Below are positions 10,348 to 43,855 of a stretch of DNA of 44,243 nucleotides, in pieces. Both the position numbers and the translations under genes were made by a program. A model generated the notes under the pieces. The model ran no database searches and was not told the origin of the DNA. It worked only from the letters and a program-made list of their open reading frames with translations. Source of the DNA: Flavobacteriales bacterium (GTDB taxonomy: Bacteria > Bacteroidota > Bacteroidia > Flavobacteriales_F > PHOS-HE28); assembly GCA_049290175.1 (NCBI GenBank), contig JBATND010000351.1, positions 1 to 44,243 of the forward strand, read 5' to 3'. Each line of letters begins with the position of its first letter. The stretch's first letter is position 1.

Positions 10348-11319
10348 TCAATCTAGCGCCTGCCCCGCGTTCCTCGAGATCTCCACCATGCGTGCGTATT
10401 CCTCTGGTGTGAGGTCGTTGAAGTAGTAGTTGGCCGGATCCATGGGCTGGCCGCCCTTATGCACCTCGTAATGCAAGTGTGGTCCCACGCTCAGGCCCGT
10501 GTTGCCCACCAGCCCGATCACGTCGCCGCGTTTCACGCGCTGTCCCTTGCGCACTTCCAATTTGCTCAGGTGGGCATACAGCGTCTCGTAGTCGAAACCG
10601 TGATCGATGACCACATGCATGCCGTAGCCGTTGGTGCCATATTCCGCATAGGTGACTACGCCATCGCCGGTGGCGTGGATGGGCACGCCGGGCTTCGCCG
10701 TGAAATCCATGCCTGCGTGGAACTTCATGATCTTGTGGATCGGGTGCATGCGCCAGCCGAAACCACTGGCCGTCTGGTTGAGATCCTCATTGGCGATGGG
10801 CTGCACAGCGGGGATACTGGCGAGCATCTCCTGTTTGCGCAGCACCAATTCGCCCACTTCATCGAGCGAGCGCGATTGGATCACGAGCTGTCGCGTGAGC
10901 AGGTCGAGCCGCTTCGCAGTGGCCACCACCAATTCGCTGTTGGCATAACCCGCCAGGTCGCGGTAGCGGTTGATGCCGCCCACGCCGGCCATGCGCATGC
11001 TCTCCGGGAGCGGATCGGCCTCCAGGATCACGCGGTAGATGTTGTCGTCGCGGCGGCGCACATCGCCCAGCACCTTTTCCAGCTCCCCGATCTGCTTGTT
11101 CAGCAACTCGTACTGCACCAGCAATTGCTTGTTCTCCCGGCGCAAAAGCGACTCCTTCGGGCTATCGACGAACTGGTAAACGAGGAAGATGCCCAGCAGC
11201 CCCACGGCCAGCCCCGGAAGCAGCAGCAGTGCGGTGCGCTTCACCTTCTGCCAGGCAGTGAGGCGGATGCGCTCGAAGTTGAGCGTCTTGGGGTTGAGGC
11301 GATACTTGTGCTCGGGCAT
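10348..11319 (-). CDS. M23 family metallopeptidase (membrane-anchored)
   Basis: It has the C-terminal LytM motifs HAGMDF...HATGDG...TGLSVGPHLHYEV and an N-terminal TM segment followed by a coiled coil. The start was trimmed to MPEHKYRL (ATG at 11319-11317). Confidence 0.88.
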   Translation of the reverse strand: MPEHKYRLNPKTLNFERIRLTAWQKVKRTALLLLPGLAVGLLGIFLVYQFVDSPKESLLRRENKQLLVQYELLNKQIGELEKVLGDVRRRDDNIYRVILEADPLPESMRMAGVGGINRYRDLAGYANSELVVATAKRLDLLTRQLVIQSRSLDEVGELVLRKQEMLASIPAVQPIANEDLNQTASGFGWRMHPIHKIMKFHAGMDFTAKPGVPIHATGDGVVTYAEYGTNGYGMHVVIDHGFDYETLYAHLSKLEVRKGQRVKRGDVIGLVGNTGLSVGPHLHYEVHKGGQPMDPANYYFNDLTPEEYARMVEISRNAGQALD

Positions 11320-11548
11320 GGTTCGGCGAAGTTGATGCCAGTTGCACAAATGATGACACCTGCATCCAAGAAGCGAGTGAACCTCCAAGAGTGATAGGCC
11401 ATAAAGCGCTGATATACTGCGGCATTACCCCCGCCGCCTACCATTAGGCATGCGCGAATGGCAACTTAAATGATTTGGCGGTGGCGAAGATGCCAACAAG
11501 GTTCGTGTTCGCTATACCAAGCCCAAGAAAAACCTTCACACCCCTCTG

Positions 11549-12592
11549 ATGTTTGTAGCGGCCATGATTGCCATGATTGCATGCAAGAAAGAAATCCATG
11601 ACATGAGGTCAAAAACATGCGAACCCGATGGCGCTTTTAAAGCTGGCGACCCTCCGCAGGATTGTGCGATGAATGTTTCAATAGAGTGCGGGATGCTCTC
11701 CTTTGAAGATTTAGACCATTTTCTCGCAGTAGCGGAATGTTTGACGGAGAGATACAACGCGCACGTTGATTGGTTCGTTTCACAGAACGAGAACCTGGAC
11801 GATGACGAGCTCGACGAGCTTGCAGAAGTGAGTGGCTTTGTTGATGAAGAGGCAATCATATACTTTGAAACATCCTTAGGGTTCGCCTCCTATCGACAGC
11901 ATTACGAATCAACTCTAACAGACTGGGTCGACGCTGGCAACGATCCTGAGGACTTTAGTATGCCCGAGCTCTTCCCTTCACCGGCTCTCGCAGCACTGAG
12001 GAATGTGCATGGCGCTGTGATGATTGGAGGCGCGATATACTTGACCGACGGTTCTGGAAGGCGTTGGGAATTCTGCACTTGCGATGTTCATTTGGATTAC
12101 TTAGCGAATCCTACCGCATACGAATCCATTGAGGGGGACCCCTGCGTTACGCTGCATAGAACTATTTACGAAGGCAATGGAACGCAGTGCTCCGACTCAT
12201 GGAGGCAATGTAGATGGATAGAGTACAGTACCGGCAAGAAAGTGAAGGCGACTTTGGAATTCAGCTATGGAGGTTACGCACCTACCCAAACTCTAGTGTC
12301 TGCCAGACTCGATGCCTGGAAGCAGCGTGCGAGTGGCAGGTGGAAGCGTCGATACCTGAGCCTGCACCCGAGGGCCACAGGTCCCTTTACGGAAACCGGC
12401 TGCGACGCGCGTGGTAATTACAACGTGAACAAGGGCAGCAAGCGTCGTCGAACTTGGGAATCATGGGATAGCTATCATGGACAAAAGACGTTCAAGAATG
12501 AGACCTGCGTTGGGAGTTACGTATGGGGTCCCAACAATTTGCAGCATACCATAATGCTTGACTTCGTCAACGGACAACTGTGCTGGAATTAA
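11549..12592 (+). CDS. hypothetical lipoprotein with an acidic N-terminal half and a Cys/Trp/basic-rich C-terminal half
   Basis: MFVAAMIAMIAC is a lipobox-like signal. There are 13 Cys after the lipobox Cys. I recognise no family. The region is low in GC. Confidence 0.55.
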   Translation: MFVAAMIAMIACKKEIHDMRSKTCEPDGAFKAGDPPQDCAMNVSIECGMLSFEDLDHFLAVAECLTERYNAHVDWFVSQNENLDDDELDELAEVSGFVDEEAIIYFETSLGFASYRQHYESTLTDWVDAGNDPEDFSMPELFPSPALAALRNVHGAVMIGGAIYLTDGSGRRWEFCTCDVHLDYLANPTAYESIEGDPCVTLHRTIYEGNGTQCSDSWRQCRWIEYSTGKKVKATLEFSYGGYAPTQTLVSARLDAWKQRASGRWKRRYLSLHPRATGPFTETGCDARGNYNVNKGSKRRRTWESWDSYHGQKTFKNETCVGSYVWGPNNLQHTIMLDFVNGQLCWN

Positions 12593-13406
12593 TGCAGATG
12601 GAACTGCGGTGGTGCGCTACGGCTTACTCATAACAGCATGCGCAGGGTCGATTCTATCAATGGGTCAATCCCCAGTTCCAACGTATTGCATCCGCCTCAG
12701 TGCTGGTTTTCTAGCTCTCCCGCCCATAAGGGTAAATCAGCGGCATGGGGACGAATCGCACTACAAAGGGCTTTGGGGTGCTGGCATGCGATTATCCACG
12801 GAGTTTTGCTTCCGAAGAACATTGCATGGTTCTATCCTCCTCGGTTTAGACTATGGGAGAATTCCAGCAGCATTCGCATGGGATTTAGTCTCAGACCCCA
12901 ATAGTGTAAACCAAGGCGTTGCCGACCTTCAACCTGAACCAGTTGAGCGCTACGGGCTTATCAACCTCCGGGCAGGATATGAACACACGCTTTTGCGGTT
13001 GAAGCGCACTCACCTCTCAGCGCAAATAGGCGTTGGCGTTTCTCACATCTCTACTGACGAAGGCACCTTCAGCCATTATAAAGTCACGGAATCCGGTGAT
13101 TTGGCGCTGCTCGCCACGCATAATCTTGAGATTAATTCAGAAGGTCGGCCCCTGCCCACCTTTTACGGCGCACTCACCTGGCAGCACACATTCTCAAATT
13201 TGAATGAACTCTGCATCGGTGCTTATAGTATGATCTCACTTCAAGGCGATGAGATCCGTACCACCTATGTCATCGACCCTCTTGGTCCAGAGGCACGTGG
13301 CGGTTCTGCGACGGGTTCCCTAAGCCATGCTGGGCTATACATCGCCTACACCATGTCCTGGGGGTATCCCAAATTGCCTCGCTGGCTTCGAGCTACGATT
13401 CAATGA
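12558..13406 (+). CDS. hypothetical exported beta-rich protein, paralog A (start uncertain)
   Basis: The ORF-track ATG is at 12558. The in-frame GTGs at 12609/12612 would give (M)VRYGLLITAC, a short lipobox-like signal with no overlap on the upstream gene. The sequence alternates in a beta-strand-like pattern. The C-terminus YIAYTMSWGYPKLPRWLRATIQ matches the next gene. Confidence 0.45.
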   Translation: MTSSTDNCAGINADGTAVVRYGLLITACAGSILSMGQSPVPTYCIRLSAGFLALPPIRVNQRHGDESHYKGLWGAGMRLSTEFCFRRTLHGSILLGLDYGRIPAAFAWDLVSDPNSVNQGVADLQPEPVERYGLINLRAGYEHTLLRLKRTHLSAQIGVGVSHISTDEGTFSHYKVTESGDLALLATHNLEINSEGRPLPTFYGALTWQHTFSNLNELCIGAYSMISLQGDEIRTTYVIDPLGPEARGGSATGSLSHAGLYIAYTMSWGYPKLPRWLRATIQ

Positions 13407-14275
13407 AAGCGCGATTGGTCTGCTGTGCTTGTGTACTTGGCCTCCACTCGCACCATGGGTCAGCAACGGCCCAGTCGCTTCCGAAGCCTGCTGTACCAAA
13501 ACATCGGTTGTGCATGGAACTCGGCGGTGGCTACCAAATGCCGCGTTCTTTCTCCACAAACGAAAACGGCCATGCCGAGTTTTCATTTTCTGCTGTGCAT
13601 CTTTCATTGGGAGGTGTGTATGGCTGGCGGTTCAGCGAGCGCCTTGAGTTCGCCATTGGCGCTGGGTTCGTTTGGTCCCGTTACGAAATGCGAGCAAATG
13701 CTGCTATATCCGACTCGCTTGTTAATCGGAGTGGGGCTTCGCGCACTACTTATTCGTTCAACTGGTTCCCTTTCCCTTCCGGAGGATCCACACGCTACGA
13801 CCGTCCAATAGACCCCCCGATCTGTGCCTTTCGCGCAGAATACCGCATATCTCAGAAGCGGGCCAACTCGTGTTGGCTTGGGCTTGCAATAGGTGTGATG
13901 CCTCAATACACTTCGATGATAACCCGGCATGTTTCGGTATATGCAAGCACTGACCAAACTTATGTGCTCATGGACGCCGGACTTGGCCATGGAGGCCAAC
14001 TCAATCCATGGGCAGGCGCGCAATTCCGAGTAGAACGGTCGCTTGCGAACATGAACCGGATTCAATTCGGGATAGATGCCATTGTCAGCATCTTGCCGTT
14101 TTACACTACGCAGTTGCTCATGAATCAACGAGACGGAACCTTTACCATTTACTCTCACAACAACCGTTTCGCTTGGCTTCGTCTATCCGTCGGTCATTCT
14201 TTTACATGGGGATCCCCTCGCAAGCCGCGATGGCTGCGCCTTCATGAAGAACGCAGGGTTTCTACCGCGCCATAA
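13403..14275 (+). CDS. hypothetical exported beta-rich protein, paralog B
   Basis: Signal peptide MKARLVCCACVLGLHSHHGSATAQ. The C-terminus LSVGHSFTWGSPRKPRWLRLHEERR is shared with the upstream gene. ATGA overlap with paralog A. Confidence 0.55.
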   Translation: MKARLVCCACVLGLHSHHGSATAQSLPKPAVPKHRLCMELGGGYQMPRSFSTNENGHAEFSFSAVHLSLGGVYGWRFSERLEFAIGAGFVWSRYEMRANAAISDSLVNRSGASRTTYSFNWFPFPSGGSTRYDRPIDPPICAFRAEYRISQKRANSCWLGLAIGVMPQYTSMITRHVSVYASTDQTYVLMDAGLGHGGQLNPWAGAQFRVERSLANMNRIQFGIDAIVSILPFYTTQLLMNQRDGTFTIYSHNNRFAWLRLSVGHSFTWGSPRKPRWLRLHEERRVSTAP

Positions 14276-14313
14276 TGCAGTAGTTGGGCGCTGAATAACT
14301 TCGCCGCCCACTA

Positions 14314-16953
14314 TTGAGTATGATGACGTCCCAGCAGATCCGCCAGAAGTTCCTCGACCATTTCGCTAAGCGCGGCCACCAGATCGTGCCCAGTGCGCCC
14401 ATGGTGATCAAGGACGATCCCACGCTCATGTTCACCAACGCGGGCATGAACCAGTTCAAGGACCTGTTCCTCGGCAACCGCGAAGCCAAGCACAAACGCA
14501 TCGCCGACACACAGAAATGCCTGCGCGTTTCCGGCAAGCACAACGACCTGGAGGAAGTAGGTATCGACACCTACCACCACACCATGTTCGAGATGCTCGG
14601 CAACTGGAGCTTCGGGGATTATTTCAAGAAGGAGGCGATCCAGTGGGCCTGGGAGTTGTTGGTGGATGAATACAAGATCGATCCAGCGAGCATCTACGTG
14701 ACCTATTTCGGCGGCGACGAGAAGGATGGCCTGCCCGCCGATGAAGAGACGCGCCAACTATGGTTGCAGTACATGCCCGAAGAGCGCATCCTCCCCTTCA
14801 GCCGCAAGGACAACTTCTGGGAGATGGGCGACACCGGTCCGTGCGGGCCATGCACCGAGATCCATGTGGACGTGCGCACGGCCGAGGAGAAAGCGCAGAA
14901 GCCCGGCCGCGAGTTGGTGAACAACGACCACCCGCAGGTGATCGAGATCTGGAACAATGTGTTCATGCAGTTCGAGCGCAAGGCCGATGGCTCGCTCGTA
15001 ACGTTGCCCGCGCAGCACGTGGATACCGGCATGGGCTTCGAGCGCCTGTGCATGGTGCTGCAAGGCAAACGCAGCAACTACGATACGGATGTGTTCCAGC
15101 CGCTGATCCAGGTGATCGCGAAGGCGAGTGGGAAAGTGTATGGTGAGACTCCGGCTCAAGGCCGGAGTGACAATGCAGAGAAGAGTGACATCGCCATGCG
15201 CGTGATCGCCGATCACCTGCGCGCCATCAGCTTCGCCATTGCCGATGGACAATTGCCGAGCAATACCGGCGCGGGTTACGTGATCCGTCGCATCCTGCGC
15301 CGTGCCGTTCGCTATGGCTACAGCTTCCTCGGCTTCAACGAGCCGTTCATGTTCGCGTTGGTACCCACGCTCGCCAAAGAGATGGGCGATCAATTCCCTG
15401 AGTTGCGCAAACAACAGCAGCTCATCGAAAGCGTGATACAGGAAGAAGAGAAAGCCTTTCTGCGCACATTGGAGCAAGGCACCAAGCGTCTCGAACAAGC
15501 GCTCTCAGAATCGAAGGGAACGCTTGCTGGGGACCGCGCCTTCGAGCTATTCGACACCTACGGCTTCCCCATCGACCTCACGCAGCTCATCGCCCGCGAG
15601 CAGAAGATGGATGTGGATATGAAGGGCTTCGAGGTTGAATTGCAGAAGCAGAAGGAACGCTCACGCGCTGCCACGGCAGTAACCACCGGCGACTGGGTTG
15701 AGATCGGCAAGGGTGAGACGGCCTTCATCGGCTACGATGAACTCAGCACTGATGCCCGCATCCTGCGCTACCGAAAGGTGAGCGGCAAGGGCGGCGACCA
15801 GTTCCAACTTGTGCTCGACCGCACACCGTTCTATGCCGAAGGCGGCGGACAAGTGGGCGATCAAGGCTGGCTGATACAAGGGGCCGATCAGATTGAAGTG
15901 ATCGACACCAAGCGCGAGAATCAGCTCATCGTCCACTTCACCAAGGAGTTGCCGAAGGATGTTGAGAAGCCGCTCACCGCGCAGGTGAACACGCAACGCC
16001 GCAGCCTCACTGCGCGCAACCACACGGCTACGCACTTGCTGCACCATGTGCTGCGCAAGCACTTGGGCACACACGTGGAACAGAAAGGCTCGCTCGTAGC
16101 GCCCGACCGTCTGCGCTTCGACATCAGCCACTTCGCCAAGGTCTCGGCCGAGGAATTGGCCACCATCGAGCGCGAGGTGAACGGCATGATCACCGCCGAC
16201 ATCGTGTTCGACGACAAGCGCAACGTGCCCATCGCGGAGGCGAAGGCCATGGGCGCCATGGCGCTCTTCGGCGAGAAGTACGGCGACAACGTGCGTGTGG
16301 TGAAGTTCGGCCCCAGCGTTGAGCTCTGCGGTGGCACGCACGTGCCGCGCACCGGTGTGATCGGACCTTTCCGCATCGTGAGCGAGAGTGCGCTGGCAGC
16401 AGGCATCCGCCGCATCGAGGCCATCACCAGCGTAGAGGCCGAGCGCATGATCAGCGAGAAGCTCGCCAAGTTGGAGGCCATCGAGGCCCTGCTGAAGAAC
16501 CCCGCCGATGTGGTGGCCGCCGTGCAGAAGCTCGCCGAGCAGAACACCGCCCTCACCAAGGAATTGGAGAAGGCTGGGAAGGAGAAGGTGAAGCGCCTGG
16601 CCTCTTCCATTCCCGCCAAGGCGAAGGCCAATGCGAAAGGCGTGAAAGTGCTCGTGGAGCAGCTCGACCTCGATGCCCAAGGCATGAAGGATCTCGGCTT
16701 CGCCCTGCGCGAGCAGCACAGTGACCTGGCCTTCGTTGCTGGCTCCGTGATCGATGGCAAACCCTTGCTCGCCGTCTCGCTCGGCAAGCAGGCGATCGAG
16801 TCAACCGGCCTCAAAGCGGTGGACATCATCAAGCAGATCAGTCCCGCGATCAAAGGCGGCGGCGGTGGCCAACCCGATTTCGCCACGGCCGGCGGCAAAG
16901 AGCCGAGCGGCATGAGCGATGCGCTGAAGAAGGCGGCGGAGCTACTCTCGTGA
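14314..16953 (+). CDS. alaS: alanine--tRNA ligase
   Basis: 879 aa. It shows FTNAGMNQFKD, WSFGDYFK, DTGMGFERL, the HTATHLLH editing-domain motif and a C-terminal DHHA1-like GGGGGQPDFA. Confidence 0.97.
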   Translation: MSMMTSQQIRQKFLDHFAKRGHQIVPSAPMVIKDDPTLMFTNAGMNQFKDLFLGNREAKHKRIADTQKCLRVSGKHNDLEEVGIDTYHHTMFEMLGNWSFGDYFKKEAIQWAWELLVDEYKIDPASIYVTYFGGDEKDGLPADEETRQLWLQYMPEERILPFSRKDNFWEMGDTGPCGPCTEIHVDVRTAEEKAQKPGRELVNNDHPQVIEIWNNVFMQFERKADGSLVTLPAQHVDTGMGFERLCMVLQGKRSNYDTDVFQPLIQVIAKASGKVYGETPAQGRSDNAEKSDIAMRVIADHLRAISFAIADGQLPSNTGAGYVIRRILRRAVRYGYSFLGFNEPFMFALVPTLAKEMGDQFPELRKQQQLIESVIQEEEKAFLRTLEQGTKRLEQALSESKGTLAGDRAFELFDTYGFPIDLTQLIAREQKMDVDMKGFEVELQKQKERSRAATAVTTGDWVEIGKGETAFIGYDELSTDARILRYRKVSGKGGDQFQLVLDRTPFYAEGGGQVGDQGWLIQGADQIEVIDTKRENQLIVHFTKELPKDVEKPLTAQVNTQRRSLTARNHTATHLLHHVLRKHLGTHVEQKGSLVAPDRLRFDISHFAKVSAEELATIEREVNGMITADIVFDDKRNVPIAEAKAMGAMALFGEKYGDNVRVVKFGPSVELCGGTHVPRTGVIGPFRIVSESALAAGIRRIEAITSVEAERMISEKLAKLEAIEALLKNPADVVAAVQKLAEQNTALTKELEKAGKEKVKRLASSIPAKAKANAKGVKVLVEQLDLDAQGMKDLGFALREQHSDLAFVAGSVIDGKPLLAVSLGKQAIESTGLKAVDIIKQISPAIKGGGGGQPDFATAGGKEPSGMSDALKKAAELLS

Positions 16954-17648: not shown

Positions 17649-20150
17649 TCACCCCCGCACGTACACGCGCTTCACCCGCGGCGGCACGCTCGTGAGCACT
17701 TCGTAGGGAATGGTGCCCAGGTCGCGCGCGAGCTCGGTGATCGGATGCGCGGCATCGAAGAGCACGGCCTCGTCGCCAACCGCGCATGTGATTTCCGTGA
17801 CATCGATCATGCACATGTCCATGCACACGGTGCCGATGATGGGTGCCGCATGGCCATGCACCCAGAAGCGGCCCACGCCGTTGCTGAGCCTGCGCGATAG
17901 TCCATCGGCGTAGCCCATGGGCACGGTGGCAATGAGCCGCTCACTGTCCGCCACGCCGCGCCTTCCATAGCCGATGGTGCTTCCTGGAGGCACGCGCTTG
18001 ATCTGCGCGATCACCGTGCGCAAGCTGGCGGCGTGCAAGAGTTGGGCGGTCTCTTGTGTGCTGGAACCGATACCGTGCAGGCCGATGCCGAGCCGTACCA
18101 TATCGAAGTGGGCTTCCTTCCAACGCGATGCACCGGCTGAATTCGCGATGTGCAGCAGCGGCCTGTAGCCGAGCACCGCGATCAACGCATCGGCCATGCG
18201 CGTGAATGCCACGATCTGCCCGCGCGTGAACTCGTCGTGCGCGGGATCGTCGCTCGCGGCAAGGTGCGAAAGGATCGATACGACCTTCAGTCCTTTCGCC
18301 CCACGAATCGCCTCGATGAGCTGCGGCAGTTCATCCTCCGCGAAGCCCAAGCGCCGCATGCCCGTATCGAGCTTCATGTGGATGGGCGGCGCATCGGCAT
18401 GCGCTTGGGCAAAGCGCGCGGCCTCGCTGAAGGAGCGCTCGTCGTACACCTCTGGCTCCAAGCGGAATCGGTGCAGGGTCTCCATCGGAACCGGCTCCGG
18501 GTTCATCACGAGGATCGGCGTGGTGATGCCCTGCTGCCGCAATTCAATGCCTTCATCGGCATAGGCGACACCCAGGTATTGCACCTGCTCATGCGCGAAG
18601 AGCCGCGCTAATTCCAGCGCGCCATTGCCATAGCCGAAGGCCTTTACCATGGCCATCACAGCCACGGCTACCCTCTCCTTCGGAGAGGGGCCGGGGGTGA
18701 GGCCGAGCGACGCGCGGTAGTAGTTGAGATTGTGCCGGATCGCCTCCAGGTCAACCTCCATCACGGTGCCATGCACTTGTCGTTGCCAGCGCGTTGCGAT
18801 GCGCTCCAATCCGAAGGCGCGCGCACCCTTAACGAGCACGGCGTGATCCTTCAGCGCTGCTGGATCGAAACGCGCGAGCAGCTCTTCGGCATCAGCGAAA
18901 TGCTGCACGTGCGGTGCGAAGCTCATCGCGTGCTCGCGCAGCTCAGGGCCAACAGTGATCACGGCTTCAACACGCGATCGCGCAAGCAGTTCCTCCACAC
19001 GGAGATAGCGCAGCGCGGGCTCCTCGCCTCCCATCAAGTCGGAGAGCACAACGGCCTTTGGCCTACCAGCGGCGAGTGCATCGAGGTGCTCCAGCGCGAT
19101 GGCCAAGGATGCCGTGTCGTTGCTGTATGCATCGTTGAGCAGCGTGATGCCATGCACGCCATCGAGCGCTTCGAGGCGCATGCTCACCGGCGGCAGCGTG
19201 GGCGTGCGCGCGGCGATCCATTGCGGCGAACGGCCCAAGTGCAGCAGCAGCGCCACGCAATGGATGGCATTCTCGGCCGAGGCTTGATCGGTGAAGGGGA
19301 TCTCGAAATCGAAGTCAACGCGGTCGTTGAAGACGCGGATGCGCTGGCCGTGCGGCAGCGGCTCAGTACGGACCACATGCAGCCAGCCCTGGCGCTCGCG
19401 GCTCCAGCCCAGCAGGGCAGCGCGCTGATCGATGCCATGCGAATGCAAGGCCTGCACGACATCGGCATGATCGGCGCAGAAGACAATGGCTTGCGCATCG
19501 CGAAATAGCATTGCCTTCTCCACGGCCTTCGCACGGTCGTCTGCGAAATGCTCACCGTGCGCTGGGCCGATGTTGGTGAAGATGCCGACGGTGGGATGGA
19601 TCACGGCGCGCAATCGCTCCATCTCGCCCGGCTCACTGATGCCAGCCTCGAAAAGGCCCAGCGTGTGCTCGCGCCGCATGCCCCACACGCTCAACGGCAC
19701 GCCCACCTGCGAGTTCCAACTGCCTGGGCTGCGCGCGATGTGCTCACTGTCGCGCAGCAGGTGGAAGAGCCACTCCTTCACTACGGTCTTGCCATTGCTT
19801 CCGGTGATGCCGATCACCGGCGCATGCATCTGACTGCGGTGCCACGCGGCGATGCGCTGCAAGGCATCACGCGTGTCGCGTACGCGTATCACATTGCTAT
19901 CGGGCAGTCCTTGCGTTGCCGCTGCATCACTGACCATGAAATGGCGCATGCCCTTCGCATGCAGCTCGCGGATGTATCGGTGTGCATCGTGCCGTTCGCC
20001 ACTGAGTGCAACGAAGAGCGTGTCATTCGGCGAAAAGGGCTTGCGCGAATCGACGCTGAGGTGCGCGATCAACGGGTCGTTGTGCTGGGAGAGCCACTCC
20101 CCACCGATGGCCTCGGCGAGCGCGGTGAGGCGGTGGCCGGCGCTGGTCAT
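17649..20150 (-). CDS. murF/alr: bifunctional UDP-N-acetylmuramoyl-tripeptide--D-alanyl-D-alanine ligase / alanine racemase
   Basis: The N-terminal half has the MurF P-loop GITGSNGKT. The C-terminal half has the Alr PLP motif [10 protein letters not shown] and the C-terminal YEVLTSV...RVKRVY. The start was set at MTSAGHRL (ATG 20150-20148), in ATGA overlap with the tdk stop. Confidence 0.92.
18669..18703. repeat. hairpin-forming REP-like unit embedded in frame in murF/alr
   Basis: The plus strand reads CCCTCTCC-TTC-GGAGAGGG, a perfect 8-bp stem at 18671-18689, followed by GCCGGGGGTGAGG. On the coding strand it is translated as [11 protein letters not shown]. Confidence 0.6.
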
Positions 20151-20737
20151 TGCGCGTTCCCGACGGCACGGGCCTGATCGAAGCACACGCGGCACAACGG
20201 CTGGTAGCTCTCCTTCTCGCCCAATTGCACCAGATCGCGCCCAGCGCTGATTCGGTGGCTGAAGGCCGCGAGCGCTCCGCATCTCACGCAGATGGCATGC
20301 ACTTTCGTCACGTACTCGGCGGTGCTCAGCAGCTGCGGCATGGGGCCGAAGGGCCTTCCGAGGAAATCCATGTCGAGGCCGGCGGCGATCACGCGCACGC
20401 CCTTCGCGGCCAATTCGGCACAGACCACCGGCAGCCGCTCATCGAAGAATTGCGCTTCATCGAGCCCGACCACTTCGACATCATCAGCCAAATGCAACAA
20501 CTCTTCGCTGCTGGCGATAGGGCGCCCGCGCAAGCTGGTGCTATCATGGCTCACCACCTCGGCCTTGGCATAGCGCGTATCCACTTGCGGCTTGAAGACC
20601 TCGACGCGCTGCTTCGCGAATTCGGCGCGGCGCAGGCGACGGATCAGTTCTTCGGTCTTGCCGCTGAACATGCTGCCGCAGATCACCTCAATCCAGCCCC
20701 TGCGCGGGCTTTGGCTACCGGTGTGTTCGAGGAACAT
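20147..20737 (-). CDS. tdk: thymidine kinase
   Basis: [18 protein letters not shown]-loop, DEAQFF and the C-terminal zinc-ribbon cysteines (AICVRCG...PLCRVC). The start was trimmed to MFLEHTG (ATG 20737-20735). Confidence 0.92.
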
Positions 20738-40153: not shown

Positions 40154-43100
40154 ATGATGCACATCATTGCTACTAAGCACTGCCACGCACCGAATCTATG
40201 CCCAAGGCTGACACGCTATTGGAACGCCGTCCGGCCAGTGGCAATATGGTTGATCGTGTGCCATCTCGCTTTCACTCCAGCCATTTTGCAAGGTCAATCC
40301 GCTGGCAACTGCCATACGCAAGATCAGATTGAGGCCGAATCATGGATGATGCCGGATAGCTTGTTCTGCATTCACCCGAAGTGGACCTACCCTGACACTT
40401 CCTTTGGCTACCAGAGCATGCCCATCTCAGTGGTCAAACTTTGGTTCCATTTCCTGCGACCGCAGGATGGGAGCGGAATACATGCCGGTGACCAAGGAGC
40501 GAATTCAGCGGATCAAGTGGCTGCCGCAAACTTCAGATTCTCGCATTTGCAGAATCCAACCGTGGAGGTGAGCGATACGATTCCAGTCATTCAGGATTCG
40601 CGCTTGCGCTTCAGTCTGGAGGGAATCACCTATCACGATAGTGCGATCTTCGACACGCTCACAGGATATTCGTTCTACCACGGCCAATGGATCAACAACA
40701 TGTTCGGAGGTGATGTCGTCCACTTTGTACATGTGTATTTCTTCCAAGTGGATTCCATGACACCCGCTGGCATCATGGCATCATCCGGTGGGGTGTCCCA
40801 GTACCAGCAAGGGCAGTTCATCATAATGGTCAATTATGGTCTCACCGGCGGCGACGATCTCTTCTGCCATGAATTAGGCCATCTGTACAATAGTCATACT
40901 TTCTTGGGGTGCGCGGATGACGACAACCTTGACGACACTTTTTCCCCGGATGGGAACAGGGCGGGGGTCTCCTGCAGTGCAAGCGCAACATGGAGCGCCC
41001 TATTCTCCAGCCAGATTTGCTCAGGGGCAGGAATCAGCAACAACATTATGGGCTATAACAGCTGCCGCGATTACCTCTCCCCAAAACAGGTGGGAAAAAT
41101 CAGCTCCGCTGTGGCACGAGGCCTTACGCATCCTTCAGGTGCAAGGGTCCCCAGGAGGCACCTGGAATGTGAACCTAGCGAACTCTCCGAGGTGGTTCAT
41201 GTCCATTGCAACGCCATTTGGCGGAGCTCCAAGGCGATCAATCGCGGGTTAGTGATCCATCCGGGCGCCACGCTCACGGTGAAGTGCGGCGTGTTCTTCG
41301 GCACGCAGGCCAAGGTCGATATCATGCCGGGCGGTCGCCTAATCGTGGAAGGCGGCAACCTGAGCAGTTTGGATGGAGACTGCTATTCGTTCTGGCCTGG
41401 AATCCGGGTCTGGGGAGACAATGCTCAAAACCAATTCCCCGAAAACAACCCCTCCCACCAGGGCATCATCATCCTTATCGACGCCACCATTGAGAACGCC
41501 CGTGAAGCGATCAGCACGTGGGGCGATGGCTGGGACACCTTCGGCGGCGTGGTGCGCGCCACCAACACGGTCTTCAAGAATTGCCGGCGTTCCGCACAGT
41601 TCATGGCCTACCAGAACACCATCAACGGGCAGCCCTACCGTAACCACAGCTATTTCACGGGTTGCACCTTCACGGTGGACAACGCCTACCGCGGCAACGA
41701 GGATTTCTACGCGCATGTGAGCATGTGGGGGACCGACGGCATCACCTTCGATGCCTGCGCCTTCGAGAACTTGAGCACCGCCATCTACGAGAGCCACAAG
41801 CGCGGGCACGGCATCATCAGCATCGATGCCAGCTACACCGTTGATGGGATCTGCGCCGTGATGCCACCCGATGGCTCCTTCTGCCACGAGAACGATCTCA
41901 TGCGCAGCCGCTTCACCGGCCTCGATCACGGCATCAACGCCCGGAATGCCACCACCGCACGTGGTTTCATTGTACGTGGATCGCTCTTCGAAGACAATAT
42001 CTGCGGGGTGTATGCCGAAGGAGTAACCGGTTTCCAGATCACCAATAATGTCTTCGAGGTCGGTGGCAGCGAAGCCACGATGACGAACCTTGAAGAGGAC
42101 AACTGGTTTGAAAGACATCGCGCTGTTTTCAGCACGAATAGCTGGGGATTCGCCATCGACGACAATACCTTGATACAGGACGGTGCTCATGCCGAGACCG
42201 AGGGCATCGTAGTGGGCTATTCGCGCGACCACAACGATCTGGTGTTCCGCAACTCGGCCAGTGGTTTGGAGCGGGCGTACATCGGCGAGGGCATCTGCGC
42301 CGACCTTGATGAAACGTACACCATGCTGCGTGGCCTGCAATTCATCTGCAACGAGAACAATGGCAATACCCAGAACTTCTGGAGCAGGAAGGTGGATGCG
42401 GATGAAATCGAGAACCCCTTGACCCACACCATCCGCACCAACCAAGGCGATTATTACCGGCCGGCGGATAACACCTTCGATCAGGTGCCCGGACCGGAAG
42501 GCGTTGCGGATTACGAGGTGACCACCGAGAACGGCAACATCACCTATTGGCACCGCAACACGGGGACCTTTGTTCCCATCCACGTGCGGCAGAGCGTGGT
42601 GCCGCCCACCTACATCGGCCCGGCACCCGCCACGCAGATCCCCGCCAACAACTGCGCGAGCAAGGTGCTGGCCACCATTCCCTACGATGAGGATCACGAG
42701 AGCGGCATGATGCTCCAACCCATCGTGGATTATTTGTTGGCCGAGAAACTCGCGTACGGCAACACGCGCTACCTATACGAGCAATTGATCGATGGCGGCA
42801 GCACCGACGAGGTGGTGGGCGAGATTACGGCGGCTTGGCCGCAGGACGCTTGGGACCTGCGTGATTACCTGCTCAGTCTGAGTCCGTATTTGAGCGTGGC
42901 CGCGCTGAAGGAGGCCATGGACAAGGAGTGGTTCCCGGATGCCATGCGGGCACAGATCTGCATCGCCAACCCCGATGCCACAAAGAAGGAGGGCTTCCTG
43001 GACTGGCTCCGGAACGAATGCCTCTACCCCCTGCCGGAATACATGCTGGCCAGCATCGTGGCGAGTTGGGAGTCGCAGACCTACCGCACGGCATTGGAAG

Positions 43101-43855
43101 CCGAAATGGCGCACCACCATGCGGAGATGAGCCAGGCCGCCAACCTGCTCATCCACCGGCATCACTGGGACGAGAATGGCGCGCAACCAGCAGAGGTGCG
43201 GGCGGTATGGCAGCTGCTGCGCACGCCTGCCGCGCGTTACGCCGAAGCGCTCACCTGGCTGCAAGAGGGCAACTACACCCAAGCCGATGCCGTGATCCGC
43301 GACATCCCCGACGAGCACGACCTGAAGGCCCCTGAGATGCTGGAGCGCCAACGCATGCGTGACCTTATTGCTATCCTACTGGCAGTTCATGCCGATGCTC
43401 GCAGCGAGGCACAACTGACCACAGGCGAAGTAGAGGCGCTGCAAGTGCTGATTGTTGATGCACACGACAGGCCCGCCACCTTGGCCAGCAACTTGCTCTG
43501 CTTTCATTATCAGCATTGCCGAGCACCGCTCACTAGCGGGGAGCCGGGTGGGCCGAAGTCACGCGTGAGTTCAGGTTCTAGGCAGAATGCAAAGGGCTCG
43601 GGCGGAATGCTCCTCATACACCCCAATCCTGCGAGTTCCTGGGTCGCGATCGACTACGATTTACTAGGTGAACCCGTCGATGCGGCTATCGCAATTCTTG
43701 ACCTCGCGGGGCGCGAGGTGAAACGCCTGAAGCTGATTGAGCCGCGGCTTCAAGTAGTGCTTGATACGCGGGAGTTATCCCCAGGCAGCTACACGGTTGT
43801 CCTCAACAACAGCGGACACCAGCTCCACGCAGAAAAACTCATCATTCGCCAATGA
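40154..43855 (+). CDS. large T9SS-secreted multidomain protein: M43-like metalloprotease-like region, beta-helix repeats, helical region, CTD
   Basis: 1233 aa. CHELGHLYNSHTF...DDTF...NNIMGYNSC...SPKQVGKI parallels the M43 layout. Repeated FxxC/FxxN units (VFKNC, FTGCTF, FDACAF, LFEDNI, NNVF, DDNT) suggest a parallel beta-helix. The C-terminus LLIHPNPASSWVAIDYDL...LSPGSYTVVL...KLIIRQ is a type-A T9SS sorting domain. Confidence 0.75.
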   Translation: MMHIIATKHCHAPNLCPRLTRYWNAVRPVAIWLIVCHLAFTPAILQGQSAGNCHTQDQIEAESWMMPDSLFCIHPKWTYPDTSFGYQSMPISVVKLWFHFLRPQDGSGIHAGDQGANSADQVAAANFRFSHLQNPTVEVSDTIPVIQDSRLRFSLEGITYHDSAIFDTLTGYSFYHGQWINNMFGGDVVHFVHVYFFQVDSMTPAGIMASSGGVSQYQQGQFIIMVNYGLTGGDDLFCHELGHLYNSHTFLGCADDDNLDDTFSPDGNRAGVSCSASATWSALFSSQICSGAGISNNIMGYNSCRDYLSPKQVGKISSAVARGLTHPSGARVPRRHLECEPSELSEVVHVHCNAIWRSSKAINRGLVIHPGATLTVKCGVFFGTQAKVDIMPGGRLIVEGGNLSSLDGDCYSFWPGIRVWGDNAQNQFPENNPSHQGIIILIDATIENAREAISTWGDGWDTFGGVVRATNTVFKNCRRSAQFMAYQNTINGQPYRNHSYFTGCTFTVDNAYRGNEDFYAHVSMWGTDGITFDACAFENLSTAIYESHKRGHGIISIDASYTVDGICAVMPPDGSFCHENDLMRSRFTGLDHGINARNATTARGFIVRGSLFEDNICGVYAEGVTGFQITNNVFEVGGSEATMTNLEEDNWFERHRAVFSTNSWGFAIDDNTLIQDGAHAETEGIVVGYSRDHNDLVFRNSASGLERAYIGEGICADLDETYTMLRGLQFICNENNGNTQNFWSRKVDADEIENPLTHTIRTNQGDYYRPADNTFDQVPGPEGVADYEVTTENGNITYWHRNTGTFVPIHVRQSVVPPTYIGPAPATQIPANNCASKVLATIPYDEDHESGMMLQPIVDYLLAEKLAYGNTRYLYEQLIDGGSTDEVVGEITAAWPQDAWDLRDYLLSLSPYLSVAALKEAMDKEWFPDAMRAQICIANPDATKKEGFLDWLRNECLYPLPEYMLASIVASWESQTYRTALEAEMAHHHAEMSQAANLLIHRHHWDENGAQPAEVRAVWQLLRTPAARYAEALTWLQEGNYTQADAVIRDIPDEHDLKAPEMLERQRMRDLIAILLAVHADARSEAQLTTGEVEALQVLIVDAHDRPATLASNLLCFHYQHCRAPLTSGEPGGPKSRVSSGSRQNAKGSGGMLLIHPNPASSWVAIDYDLLGEPVDAAIAILDLAGREVKRLKLIEPRLQVVLDTRELSPGSYTVVLNNSGHQLHAEKLIIRQ

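Follow-up and report, generated by a model that had tools for sequence, protein, structure and literature searches.

A three-gene block at positions 11549–14275 of contig JBATND010000351.1 (Flavobacteriales bacterium, GenBank assembly GCA_049290175.1) encodes a probable lipoprotein and two exported paralogs; the whole stretch of 44,243 nucleotides (nt) that was analyzed is called the window. On balance, we favor reading the three open reading frames (ORFs) as an accessory outer-membrane cassette specific to Bacteroidota, in which two paralogous barrels would dock a lipoprotein. The set is conserved, selected, and translationally coupled, and export signals are present on all three products. 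As the original prediction stated, the ORFs are co-directional, and the stop of ORF2 overlaps the start of ORF3 in an ATGA. The features of the cassette, with lengths in amino acids (aa), are as follows.

11525..11527, plus strand: AAG codon at the ancestral ORF1 start position, an apparent ATG-to-AAG loss
11549..12592, plus strand: ORF1, a Cys-rich lipoprotein (347 aa) whose Bacteroidota family is unnamed
11549..11584, plus strand: ORF1 signal peptide with the lipobox Cys (MFVAAMIAMIA-C), read from the sequence
12609..13406 from a GTG start (alternative start 12612), plus strand: ORF2 (barrel A), approximately 265 aa, a putative small outer-membrane beta-barrel
13356..13391, plus strand: C-terminal motif of ORF2, SWGYPKLPRWLR, which covers the last strand's end and a basic tail and is conserved in alignments A1 and A5
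13403..14275, plus strand: ORF3 (barrel B), 290 aa, an ORF2 paralog and putative small outer-membrane beta-barrel
14204..14239, plus strand: ORF3 C-terminal motif TWGSPRKPRWLR (alignment A4)

Seven further loci, non-identical and unrelated in position, carry the same trio, which answers the check on co-occurrence in other genomes that the original prediction had called for. The order ORF1 homolog-barrel A-barrel B is kept in L001, L002/3, L006, L007/L015, L011, and L012. A lipoprotein of approximately 350 aa is followed in the related loci by two genes of approximately 275–285 aa. The ORF1 relatives in these loci are 30–38% identical to the window protein; ORF2 matches the second gene of L001 at a BLASTP value of 1e-15, and ORF3 matches the third gene at 3e-13. 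The loci of this group are the following.

L001: trio with a fourth, weakly related barrel gene (L001 3019–3834)
L002–L005: trio
L006: trio
L007, L008: high-GC Flavobacteriales/Bacteroidetes metagenome-assembled genomes (MAGs); the full trio is present in L007, and L008 is cut off by its contig end within the ORF1 homolog
L011, L012: metagenome loci found via the barrel motif in a scan with the barrel-B alignment, both with tandem cassette copies

Ratios of nonsynonymous to synonymous substitution rates (dN/dS; Nei-Gojobori method, moderately diverged copies L007, L012, and L014) were 0.08 for the lipoprotein and 0.14–0.20 for the barrels. All three genes are therefore under purifying selection in the family, and the recurrence of the trio together with this selection establishes the three ORFs as real genes.

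Some of these loci show local variation. A second ORF1 homolog begins right after barrel B in L011 (183–3191), and a barrel gene lies ahead of the trio in L012 (112–4153). Two separate ORFs, each matching the barrel profile, take the place of an undivided barrel A in L002 (2268–3443) and L003 (1557–2732), which come from different runs; this suggests that barrel A was frameshifted or pseudogenized in that lineage. Directly downstream of the L007 trio, on the minus strand, a 529-aa ORF (10735–12324) has a GC content at third codon positions (GC3) of 0.59, compared with approximately 0.92 in its neighbors, and no Pfam match. This ORF may be spurious, or it may belong to the same island as one more accessory gene.

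ORF1 corresponds to NCBI WAT74_12665, annotated as 'hypothetical protein'. Its N-terminus reads MFVAAMIAMIAC-KKE, with the lipobox M-I-A-C12 followed by K-K-E. The lipobox that the original prediction had noted (MIAC) is thus present, and in an alignment of 56 family members at least 90% share its Cys. A recognizable lipobox was found in 81 of the 149 top matches, and many of the others are N-terminally cut fragments. Approximately ten more Cys positions are conserved in the family, and window ORF1 retains every near-invariant residue of the 56-member alignment. The best reading of these features is a disulfide-rich, lipid-anchored protein. A profile of eight ORF1 members, run against 1.84 billion representative proteins, returned 851 relatives at E≤1e-3, mostly of 330–370 aa; of these, 485 reach E≤1e-10 and 84 reach E≤1e-30. 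The family thus comprises at least 851 clusters at 50% identity, and all of its named members are 'hypothetical protein'.

Database and structure searches gave no identity for the family. There was no consistent Pfam match even when the 56 members were scanned one by one, no NCBIfam match, no significant match to PDB sequences in single-protein and profile searches, and no description in the searched literature. The AlphaFold2 model of ORF1, built from an 8-sequence alignment, is confident only for residues 40–200 (overall predicted local distance difference test score, pLDDT, 54.6), and this part is modeled as a helical bundle with small sheets. Foldseek searches of PDB and BFVD with the model returned nothing at E≤0.001; NTF2-like and capping-protein matches were disregarded, as their template modeling (TM) scores were below 0.2.

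The residues that follow the lipobox Cys form a second conserved element, x-K-(E/D), with K at +3 in 60 of 81 sequences and E or D at +4 in 52 of 81. In Capnocytophaga, the surface-export signal of lipoproteins is K-(D/E)2 or Q-A-(D/E)2 right after the Cys, with a net negative charge, and K-E alone is a very weak signal (Lauber et al. 2016, PMC5080379). Window ORF1 reads C-K-K-E-I-H-D and has neither K-(D/E)2 nor Q-A-(D/E)2 after the Cys; a second acidic residue at +5 is uncommon in the family. Surface exposure of ORF1 is neither predicted nor excluded, because the family has half of the K-(D/E)2 signal and K-E alone is very weak. The strong conservation of x-K-E suggests some sorting role.

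The two downstream proteins also carry export signals, of a different type. The GTG start of ORF2 at 12609 gives MVRYGLLITACAGSILSMG, with cleavage ahead of a Gln; M1 and Q20 are invariant in the ortholog alignments (Q20 in alignment A7). The ORF2 frame is also open from a TTG at 12558 (12558–13406). The signal peptide of ORF3, MKARLVCCACVLGLHSHHGSATA, which had been predicted from the sequence, is cleaved at ...ATA|Q, aligns with its orthologs, and has an invariant Q24 (alignment A4). Both hydrophobic N-termini end in a small-x-small pattern ahead of the invariant Gln. Under the Q-rule for Bacteroidetes signal-peptidase-I substrates (PMC5837995), ORF2 and ORF3 are predicted Sec/signal-peptidase-I substrates. 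A short lipobox from the GTG start of ORF2 had been considered possible. This proposal did not hold, since the Cys is absent from all five homologs (of 17) whose signal peptides were read, and ORF2 as a lipoprotein was therefore rejected. The Logan gene caller starts ORF2 at 12660 (248 aa) and ORF3 at 13514, both past the signal peptides.

Direct BLASTP comparison of ORF2 with ORF3 detects only a shared C-terminal motif, with 47% identity over 19 residues. The profile alignment of A7 (ORF2 group) with A4 (ORF3 group) by hhalign extends over 246 columns at a probability of 99.7% and E=3e-26, and the two proteins are therefore true paralogs. In their last strand, which is rich in aromatic residues, ...Y-x-x-(S/T)-W is conserved and followed by a tail. 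Beyond that strand the barrels of the trio subfamily have a conserved basic tail, WGxP(R/K)KPxW(L/M)R, and T268, W269, G270, P272, R273, K274, P275, W277, and R279 of ORF3 are invariant in A4. Given an even number of strands, this basic tail would be periplasmic.

Most likely, ORF2 and ORF3 are small outer-membrane beta-barrels and very divergent members of the OMP_b-brl superfamily, as judged from weak family resemblances. Among 18 barrels of the family, the weak family matches all fall on outer-membrane barrel families (AcfA, TP0733, Autotransporter, DUF3575, and OMP_b-brl types). The partner protein of the distant locus L017 scores 24.7 bits on OMP_b-brl_2 (cut-off 27) and matches the trio-barrel profile at 1e-9, and the L018 partner scores 20.8 bits on OMP_b-brl (cut-off 28.7). 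The AlphaFold2 model of ORF3, from a 3-sequence alignment, is an all-beta meander of approximately 12 strands with a C-terminal helix.

Distant relatives of ORF1 illustrate a simpler arrangement. Each is followed by one signal-peptide protein of 243–273 aa, whose start codon usually overlaps.

L016: ORF1 relative of 521 aa, partner of 243 aa
L017: ORF1 relative of 347 aa, partner of 273 aa
L018/19: ORF1 relative of 352 aa, partner of 255 aa
L022: ORF1 relative of 350 aa, partner of 272 aa
L023: ORF1 relative of 348 aa, partner of 260 aa

The independent barrel profile A1 matches the L017 partner at 1e-11 and the L022 partner at 1.8e-9, and the L023 partner matches A5 at 1.1e-8. The partners in L016, L017, and L018 are themselves A5 members, and their A5 scores are circular and were not counted. 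The L018 partner aligns to the L022 partner (BLASTP 4.7e-11), and the L016 partner has no independent barrel-profile match. Barrel matches are thus available for four of the five single partners, all except L016. Overall, a barrel gene lies directly downstream of the ORF1 relative in 12 of 14 contexts, usually with overlapping stop and start codons. The pairing of the lipoprotein with a single partner in distant loci indicates that the ancestral unit would have been one lipoprotein and one cognate barrel, with the barrel apparently duplicated from this pair in the subfamily of the window.

Of about eleven independent contexts, five or six, namely L001, L009, L017, L021, and L022 (and L007), have genes for type IX cargo proteins (Por_Secre_tail/CHU_C) within approximately 6 kb of the ORF1 homolog, and in several the two are directly adjacent. 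A protein of approximately 1,100 aa with Laminin_G_3, N-glycanase_C, and Por_Secre_tail domains recurs in L021 and L022. This proximity could reflect a functional link or shared residence in flexible regions.

Taken together, these features are consistent with the following mechanism. The three genes would be translated from one tightly coupled transcript, and the two barrels would insert into the outer membrane as a hetero-pair. There, they would dock or hold the lipoprotein to form a stoichiometric lipoprotein-barrel complex. During evolution, an ancestral lipoprotein with one barrel would have given rise to the present set by duplication of the barrel gene in the subfamily of the window, and both copies would have gained the basic tail. 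A bolder idea, which we regard as doubtful, is that the dedicated barrel presents or flips its own lipoprotein to the surface via C-x-K-E, or works with type IX cargo, as an unrecognized outer-membrane device across Bacteroidota. The twin-barrel form with basic periplasmic tails would then be a specialized subtype of such a device.

The origin of the cassette was considered from its base composition and its insertion sites. The GC content is 0.49–0.54 across 11501–14500, compared with approximately 0.61 elsewhere (500-nt windows), and the module 11549–14275 has a GC of 0.519, compared with 0.613 for the remaining contig. The GC3 values are 0.549 (ORF1), 0.511 (ORF2), and 0.529 (ORF3), compared with 0.77–0.85 in six neighboring genes. 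Among 2.9-kb windows of the contig, the block has the lowest GC, with a minimum of 0.517 at 11301, approximately 3.4 standard deviations under the mean. The block is also the top tetranucleotide outlier of the contig (z=4.4); in dinucleotide relative abundance, which is independent of GC, it deviates moderately (z=2.1) and is not the top outlier. Windowed GC, GC3, and tetranucleotide deviation therefore all single out 11549–14275, in agreement with the low-GC block that had been described from hand counts.

The neighbors of the cassette differ by host. It lies between the M23 peptidase gene and alaS in the window, after asd in L007/L015, beside an acetyltransferase gene in L002, and beside Era in L018, and the neighbors are unrelated in the comparison of the window, L001, L002, L007, L016, L017, L018, L022, and L023. 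Such varied sites are the behavior of an accessory cassette. Cassette GC is below host GC in all eight loci with measurable flanks. GC3 was compared in seven other hosts, and in all of them that of the cassette is 0.07–0.23 under its neighbors (host GC3 0.32–0.85). Cassette GC tracks the host from 0.35 to 0.61 and is never above it. As the cassette is GC-poor in every host, AT-richness is a trait of the family and cannot alone date the acquisition. Low GC is common among accessory genes. The GC3 gap in the window, approximately 0.28 (about 0.53 versus about 0.81), exceeds that of every other host compared; it fits, without proving, a relatively recent arrival from a lineage of lower GC. The cassette probably came from a lower-GC Bacteroidota lineage and was probably inserted into the divergent intergenic region between the M23 peptidase gene and alaS.

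This history was weighed against that of an old resident locus, vertically kept and weakly expressed, in which the low GC would stem from relaxed codon and GC3 selection and not from transfer. Such a locus would explain why module GC follows host GC and why module GC3 is under flank GC3 in every other host, and it agrees with the modest dinucleotide deviation. It also agrees with the lack of mobility features, as no integrase accompanies the cassette, the window contains no tRNA, flanking direct repeats are chance-length matches only, and no relatives were found in viral contigs. Against it stand the size of the GC3 gap and the tetranucleotide deviation in the window, the change of neighbors in every lineage, including the two other high-GC Flavobacteriales MAGs, and the identity of only 21–38% between the window proteins and their nearest relatives although the hosts look related. 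We consider a resident history unlikely. The compositionally foreign island of the original prediction, which had likewise seen no integrase, tRNA, or flanking direct repeat, is upheld as a composition outlier that occupies different sites in different hosts; its foreign character is tempered by the low GC in every host and by the missing mobility genes and viral relatives. A phage-borne origin, in particular, is unsupported.

Several observations weigh against the cassette as we interpret it. The low GC in every host weakens the inference of recent transfer. The location of the products in the outer membrane and the complex between them are predictions. The best family match of window ORF2 and ORF3 is AcfA_fam_omp at E=0.0067 and 15.8 bits, compared with a cut-off of 100; the near-threshold OMP_b-brl scores belong to distant partners and not to the window proteins, which detracts from the barrel assignment. 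The ORF3 barrel model has a pLDDT of 42.5 and is unreliable, and Foldseek with this model returned nothing at E≤0.001, with outer-membrane barrels among the non-significant matches only. Two ORF1 relatives (L009/L010 and L021) have no downstream barrel gene, so the lipoprotein can exist alone. The NCBI record holds no ORF3 protein between MFZ1694045.1 (ORF2) and MFZ1694046.1 (alaS), and its ORF2 product (WAT74_12670, MFZ1694045.1) is shortened to 206 aa, less than the GTG-started frame. Finally, the ORF1 copy of the window may be export-impaired, having lost its ancestral start and kept an uncharged 11-residue signal.

Other searches were equally sparse. Neither window ORF2 nor ORF3 has a Pfam match or an NCBIfam match above threshold, no usable match came from scanning the three proteins against Pfam, NCBIfam, PHROGs, and PADLOC, and PDB sequences yielded nothing significant to queries with single proteins or with profiles A1, A2, A5, and A6. 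A word-indexed homolog search with ORF3 alone returned only ORF3 itself, and the barrel alignment returned two proteins. These scans agree with the original prediction, which had recognized no family in any of the three proteins. It had also called the last two beta-rich, probably outer-membrane paralogs; they are paralogs, exported, and beta-rich, and the outer-membrane barrel part of the claim draws on sub-threshold matches and the ORF3 model of pLDDT 42.5.

The start of ORF1 and the gene calls raise the question of whether the window trio is a decaying remnant that is turning into pseudogenes, with no exported complex left. The in-frame translation upstream of ORF1 (window 11519–11551), ...KPKKNLHTPL-MFVAAMIAMIAC, lines up with homolog N-termini MRQLPLPLLFMAALISVFMAC, such that KKNLHTPL-MFVAAM... 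in the window pairs with MRQLPLPL-LFMAAL... of the homologs. An AAG codon occupies the position of the ancestral start (11525–11527), and no ATG, GTG, or TTG is found between the stop at 11471 and 11549. The start codon of ORF1 thus appears to have been lost, leaving an internal Met as the start. The remaining signal has 11 residues ahead of the Cys and no K or R, compared with a family median of 19, and so lacks a basic n-region. In addition, ORF2 has no ATG start, NCBI lists ORF2 at 206 aa and gives ORF3 no protein, and the window barrels diverge more than any others in their groups (21–23% identity); the split barrel A of the L002/L003 lineage offers a precedent for decay. However, the three reading frames are intact over 2.7 kb, ORF1 retains all near-invariant family residues, and every invariant position of A7 and A4, among them the cleavage-site Gln and those of the C-terminal motif, is retained in ORF2 and ORF3. 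Moreover, transcription probably crosses the trio, as the essential alaS lies 47 nt downstream and no terminator intervenes. We consider decay of the window copy quite unlikely.

With regard to function, a toxin system in the style of the Bacteroidales BSAP proteins is very unlikely: ORF1 would be an antimicrobial lipoprotein effector and the barrels resistant replacement versions of the attacked outer-membrane protein, an idea that draws on the lipoprotein gene fixed beside barrel genes in a patchy, compositionally atypical cassette, on the x-K-E after the Cys, which is partly like a surface-export signal, on the tandem copies in L011 and L012, and on the adjacency of BSAP genes to a gene for a resistant ortholog of the target outer-membrane protein, with which they appear co-acquired (PMC4999547), but 56 family members contain no MACPF or other toxin domain (E≤1), the ORF1 model has no fold match, the insertion sites are unrelated and no resident gene is replaced at a fixed locus, the ORF1 dN/dS of 0.08 is unlike arms-race diversification, and the overlapping stop and start codons suggest stoichiometric co-production. 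The readings are compatible with each other; the resident and decaying-copy alternatives concern history and the others concern function. The lipoprotein-barrel cassette remains the interpretation that we prefer.

The flanks of the cassette are housekeeping genes on both sides, as had been stated, and Pfam identifies them as an M23 peptidase on the left and alaS on the right.

10348..11319, minus strand: M23 family metallopeptidase, left flank, a housekeeping gene outside the cassette (Pfam Peptidase_M23, 8e-35)
11320..11548, plus strand: divergent intergenic region of 229 nt upstream of ORF1, where the GC drop starts
14323..16953, plus strand: alaS (alanine-tRNA ligase), right flank (Pfam tRNA-synt_2c, 3.6e-201)

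The M23 peptidase product (323 aa) is an exact match of NCBI MFZ1694043.1, and its gene has a GC3 of 0.83. Close relatives exist: its cluster at 90% identity or more comprises 10 members (e.g., HRD53973.1), and their contigs reach lengths of 314 kb. The alaS product (876 aa) corresponds to MFZ1694046.1. Further out, a MerR regulator lies on the minus strand beside the M23 side, and genes for a DNA-alkylation-repair protein and a Mur-ligase/alanine-racemase fusion are found downstream of alaS. The latter is an 877-aa protein on the minus strand (17649–20282), in which a Mur-ligase middle domain (MurF-like) is fused with a complete alanine racemase.

The ORF1 promoter is presumed to lie within 11320–11548. 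A sigma-70 scan of the ORF1 upstream region gave one match, at 11391–11418, which does not exceed the level of shuffled sequences, and the Bacteroidota -7 motif TAnnTTTG is absent from the plus strand across 11200–14400, including the 47-nt gap between the ORF3 stop and the alaS start (14276–14322). Nothing resembling a terminator hairpin or site lies between 14275 and 14323, and the terminator scans did not surpass shuffled sequences. As alaS follows after 47 nt with no terminator, the trio, lying directly upstream, would be transcribed through into alaS and is probably co-transcribed with it. For its expression, the essential alaS may rely on read-through from the cassette or on an internal promoter of ORF3.

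A contig of the Logan assembly (L020, run SRR28060531) corresponds to window 11280–14463 and is identical over 3,184 bp. It is an independent assembly and may derive from the same sample as the window. It covers almost exactly the low-GC island with approximately 150–270 nt of each flank. Its ends inside the M23 and alaS genes could reflect coexisting strain variants of the housekeeping flanks, with the island unbranched. A second region of lowered GC (0.52–0.57) lies at 40154–43855 of the window. Its product, a protein of 1,233 aa, combines a zinc-metallopeptidase motif (Peptidase_M43, 7.6e-05) with a C-terminal sorting domain of type IX secretion (Por_Secre_tail, 1.4e-07). This protein confirms the host as a Bacteroidota member that bears type IX secretion.

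The envelope of Bacteroidota differs from that of Proteobacteria in its surface lipoproteins, its type IX secretion, and its distinct BAM complex, and many of its components are unnamed. The present analysis adds a sizeable lipoprotein family (at least 851 clusters) that lacks any annotation. Genetically, this family is locked to a small cognate barrel, and the subfamily of the window has the barrel in duplicate. For annotators, this is a new family pair; for experimentalists, it is a compact two- or three-gene unit that can be tested. For this genome, the practical gain is modest: the island is genuine, the public record lacks a protein for one gene and mis-starts another, and the lipoprotein copy may be export-impaired. 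Nothing about the unit contradicts expectation, and it is well defined and fairly widespread. As far as the searched libraries and literature show, the lipoprotein family and its fixed pairing are undescribed, and the barrels would belong to a known superfamily.

Among known systems, SusC/SusD and BtuB/BtuG are alike in that genes for an outer-membrane barrel and a lipoprotein are adjacent in Bacteroidota and the products are presumed to form a complex. The trio proteins differ in having no TonB-dependent receptor, Plug, or SusD/RagB domains; their barrels are small and not 22-stranded, the lipoprotein gene comes first, and the lipoprotein is without a full K-(D/E)2. A SusCD reading was rejected, as no trio protein gives it domain support. 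In LptD/LptE and in RcsF/OmpA-type assemblies, a lipoprotein is held by or inside an outer-membrane barrel with which it is co-encoded or co-assembled. No sequence or fold relation of the trio to these was detected, sizes and domains are unrelated, and the likeness is a functional conjecture. The BSAP-1 locus of Bacteroides fragilis (PMC4999547) similarly has a gene for a surface or secreted protein by an outer-membrane barrel gene, co-acquired and strain-variable. The trio differs by the absence of MACPF, by the absence of an ortholog replaced at a fixed locus, and by the strong constraint on ORF1; a MACPF toxin reading finds no MACPF match in the 56 ORF1 members and no MACPF/CDC structure among the Foldseek matches.

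PorP/SprF proteins, which serve cargo with type-B C-terminal domains (CTDs), are also Bacteroidota-specific barrels of approximately 300 aa that are encoded beside the protein they serve, and the frequent position of ORF1 relatives near type IX cargo genes adds to the likeness. ORF1 differs in being a lipoprotein and in lacking a C-terminal sorting domain, type IX cargo genes come no nearer than 26 kb in the window, and PorP_SprF (PF11751/TIGR03519) has no match at E≤1 in the 18 barrels, in Pfam or NCBIfam. PorP/SprF and type V pilus readings were both rejected, as neither has domain support. The OMP_b-brl and OMP_b-brl_2 families (PF13505 and PF13568; 'porin family protein' in Bacteroidota) share with the window barrels a Sec signal, a length of 240–290 aa, an all-beta prediction, and a last strand with alternating aromatic residues, and distant partners score just under their Pfam cut-offs. 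Window ORF2 and ORF3 match neither model and differ by the basic extension P(R/K)KPxW(L/M)R past the last strand and by the constant pairing of barrels A and B behind a specific lipoprotein gene.

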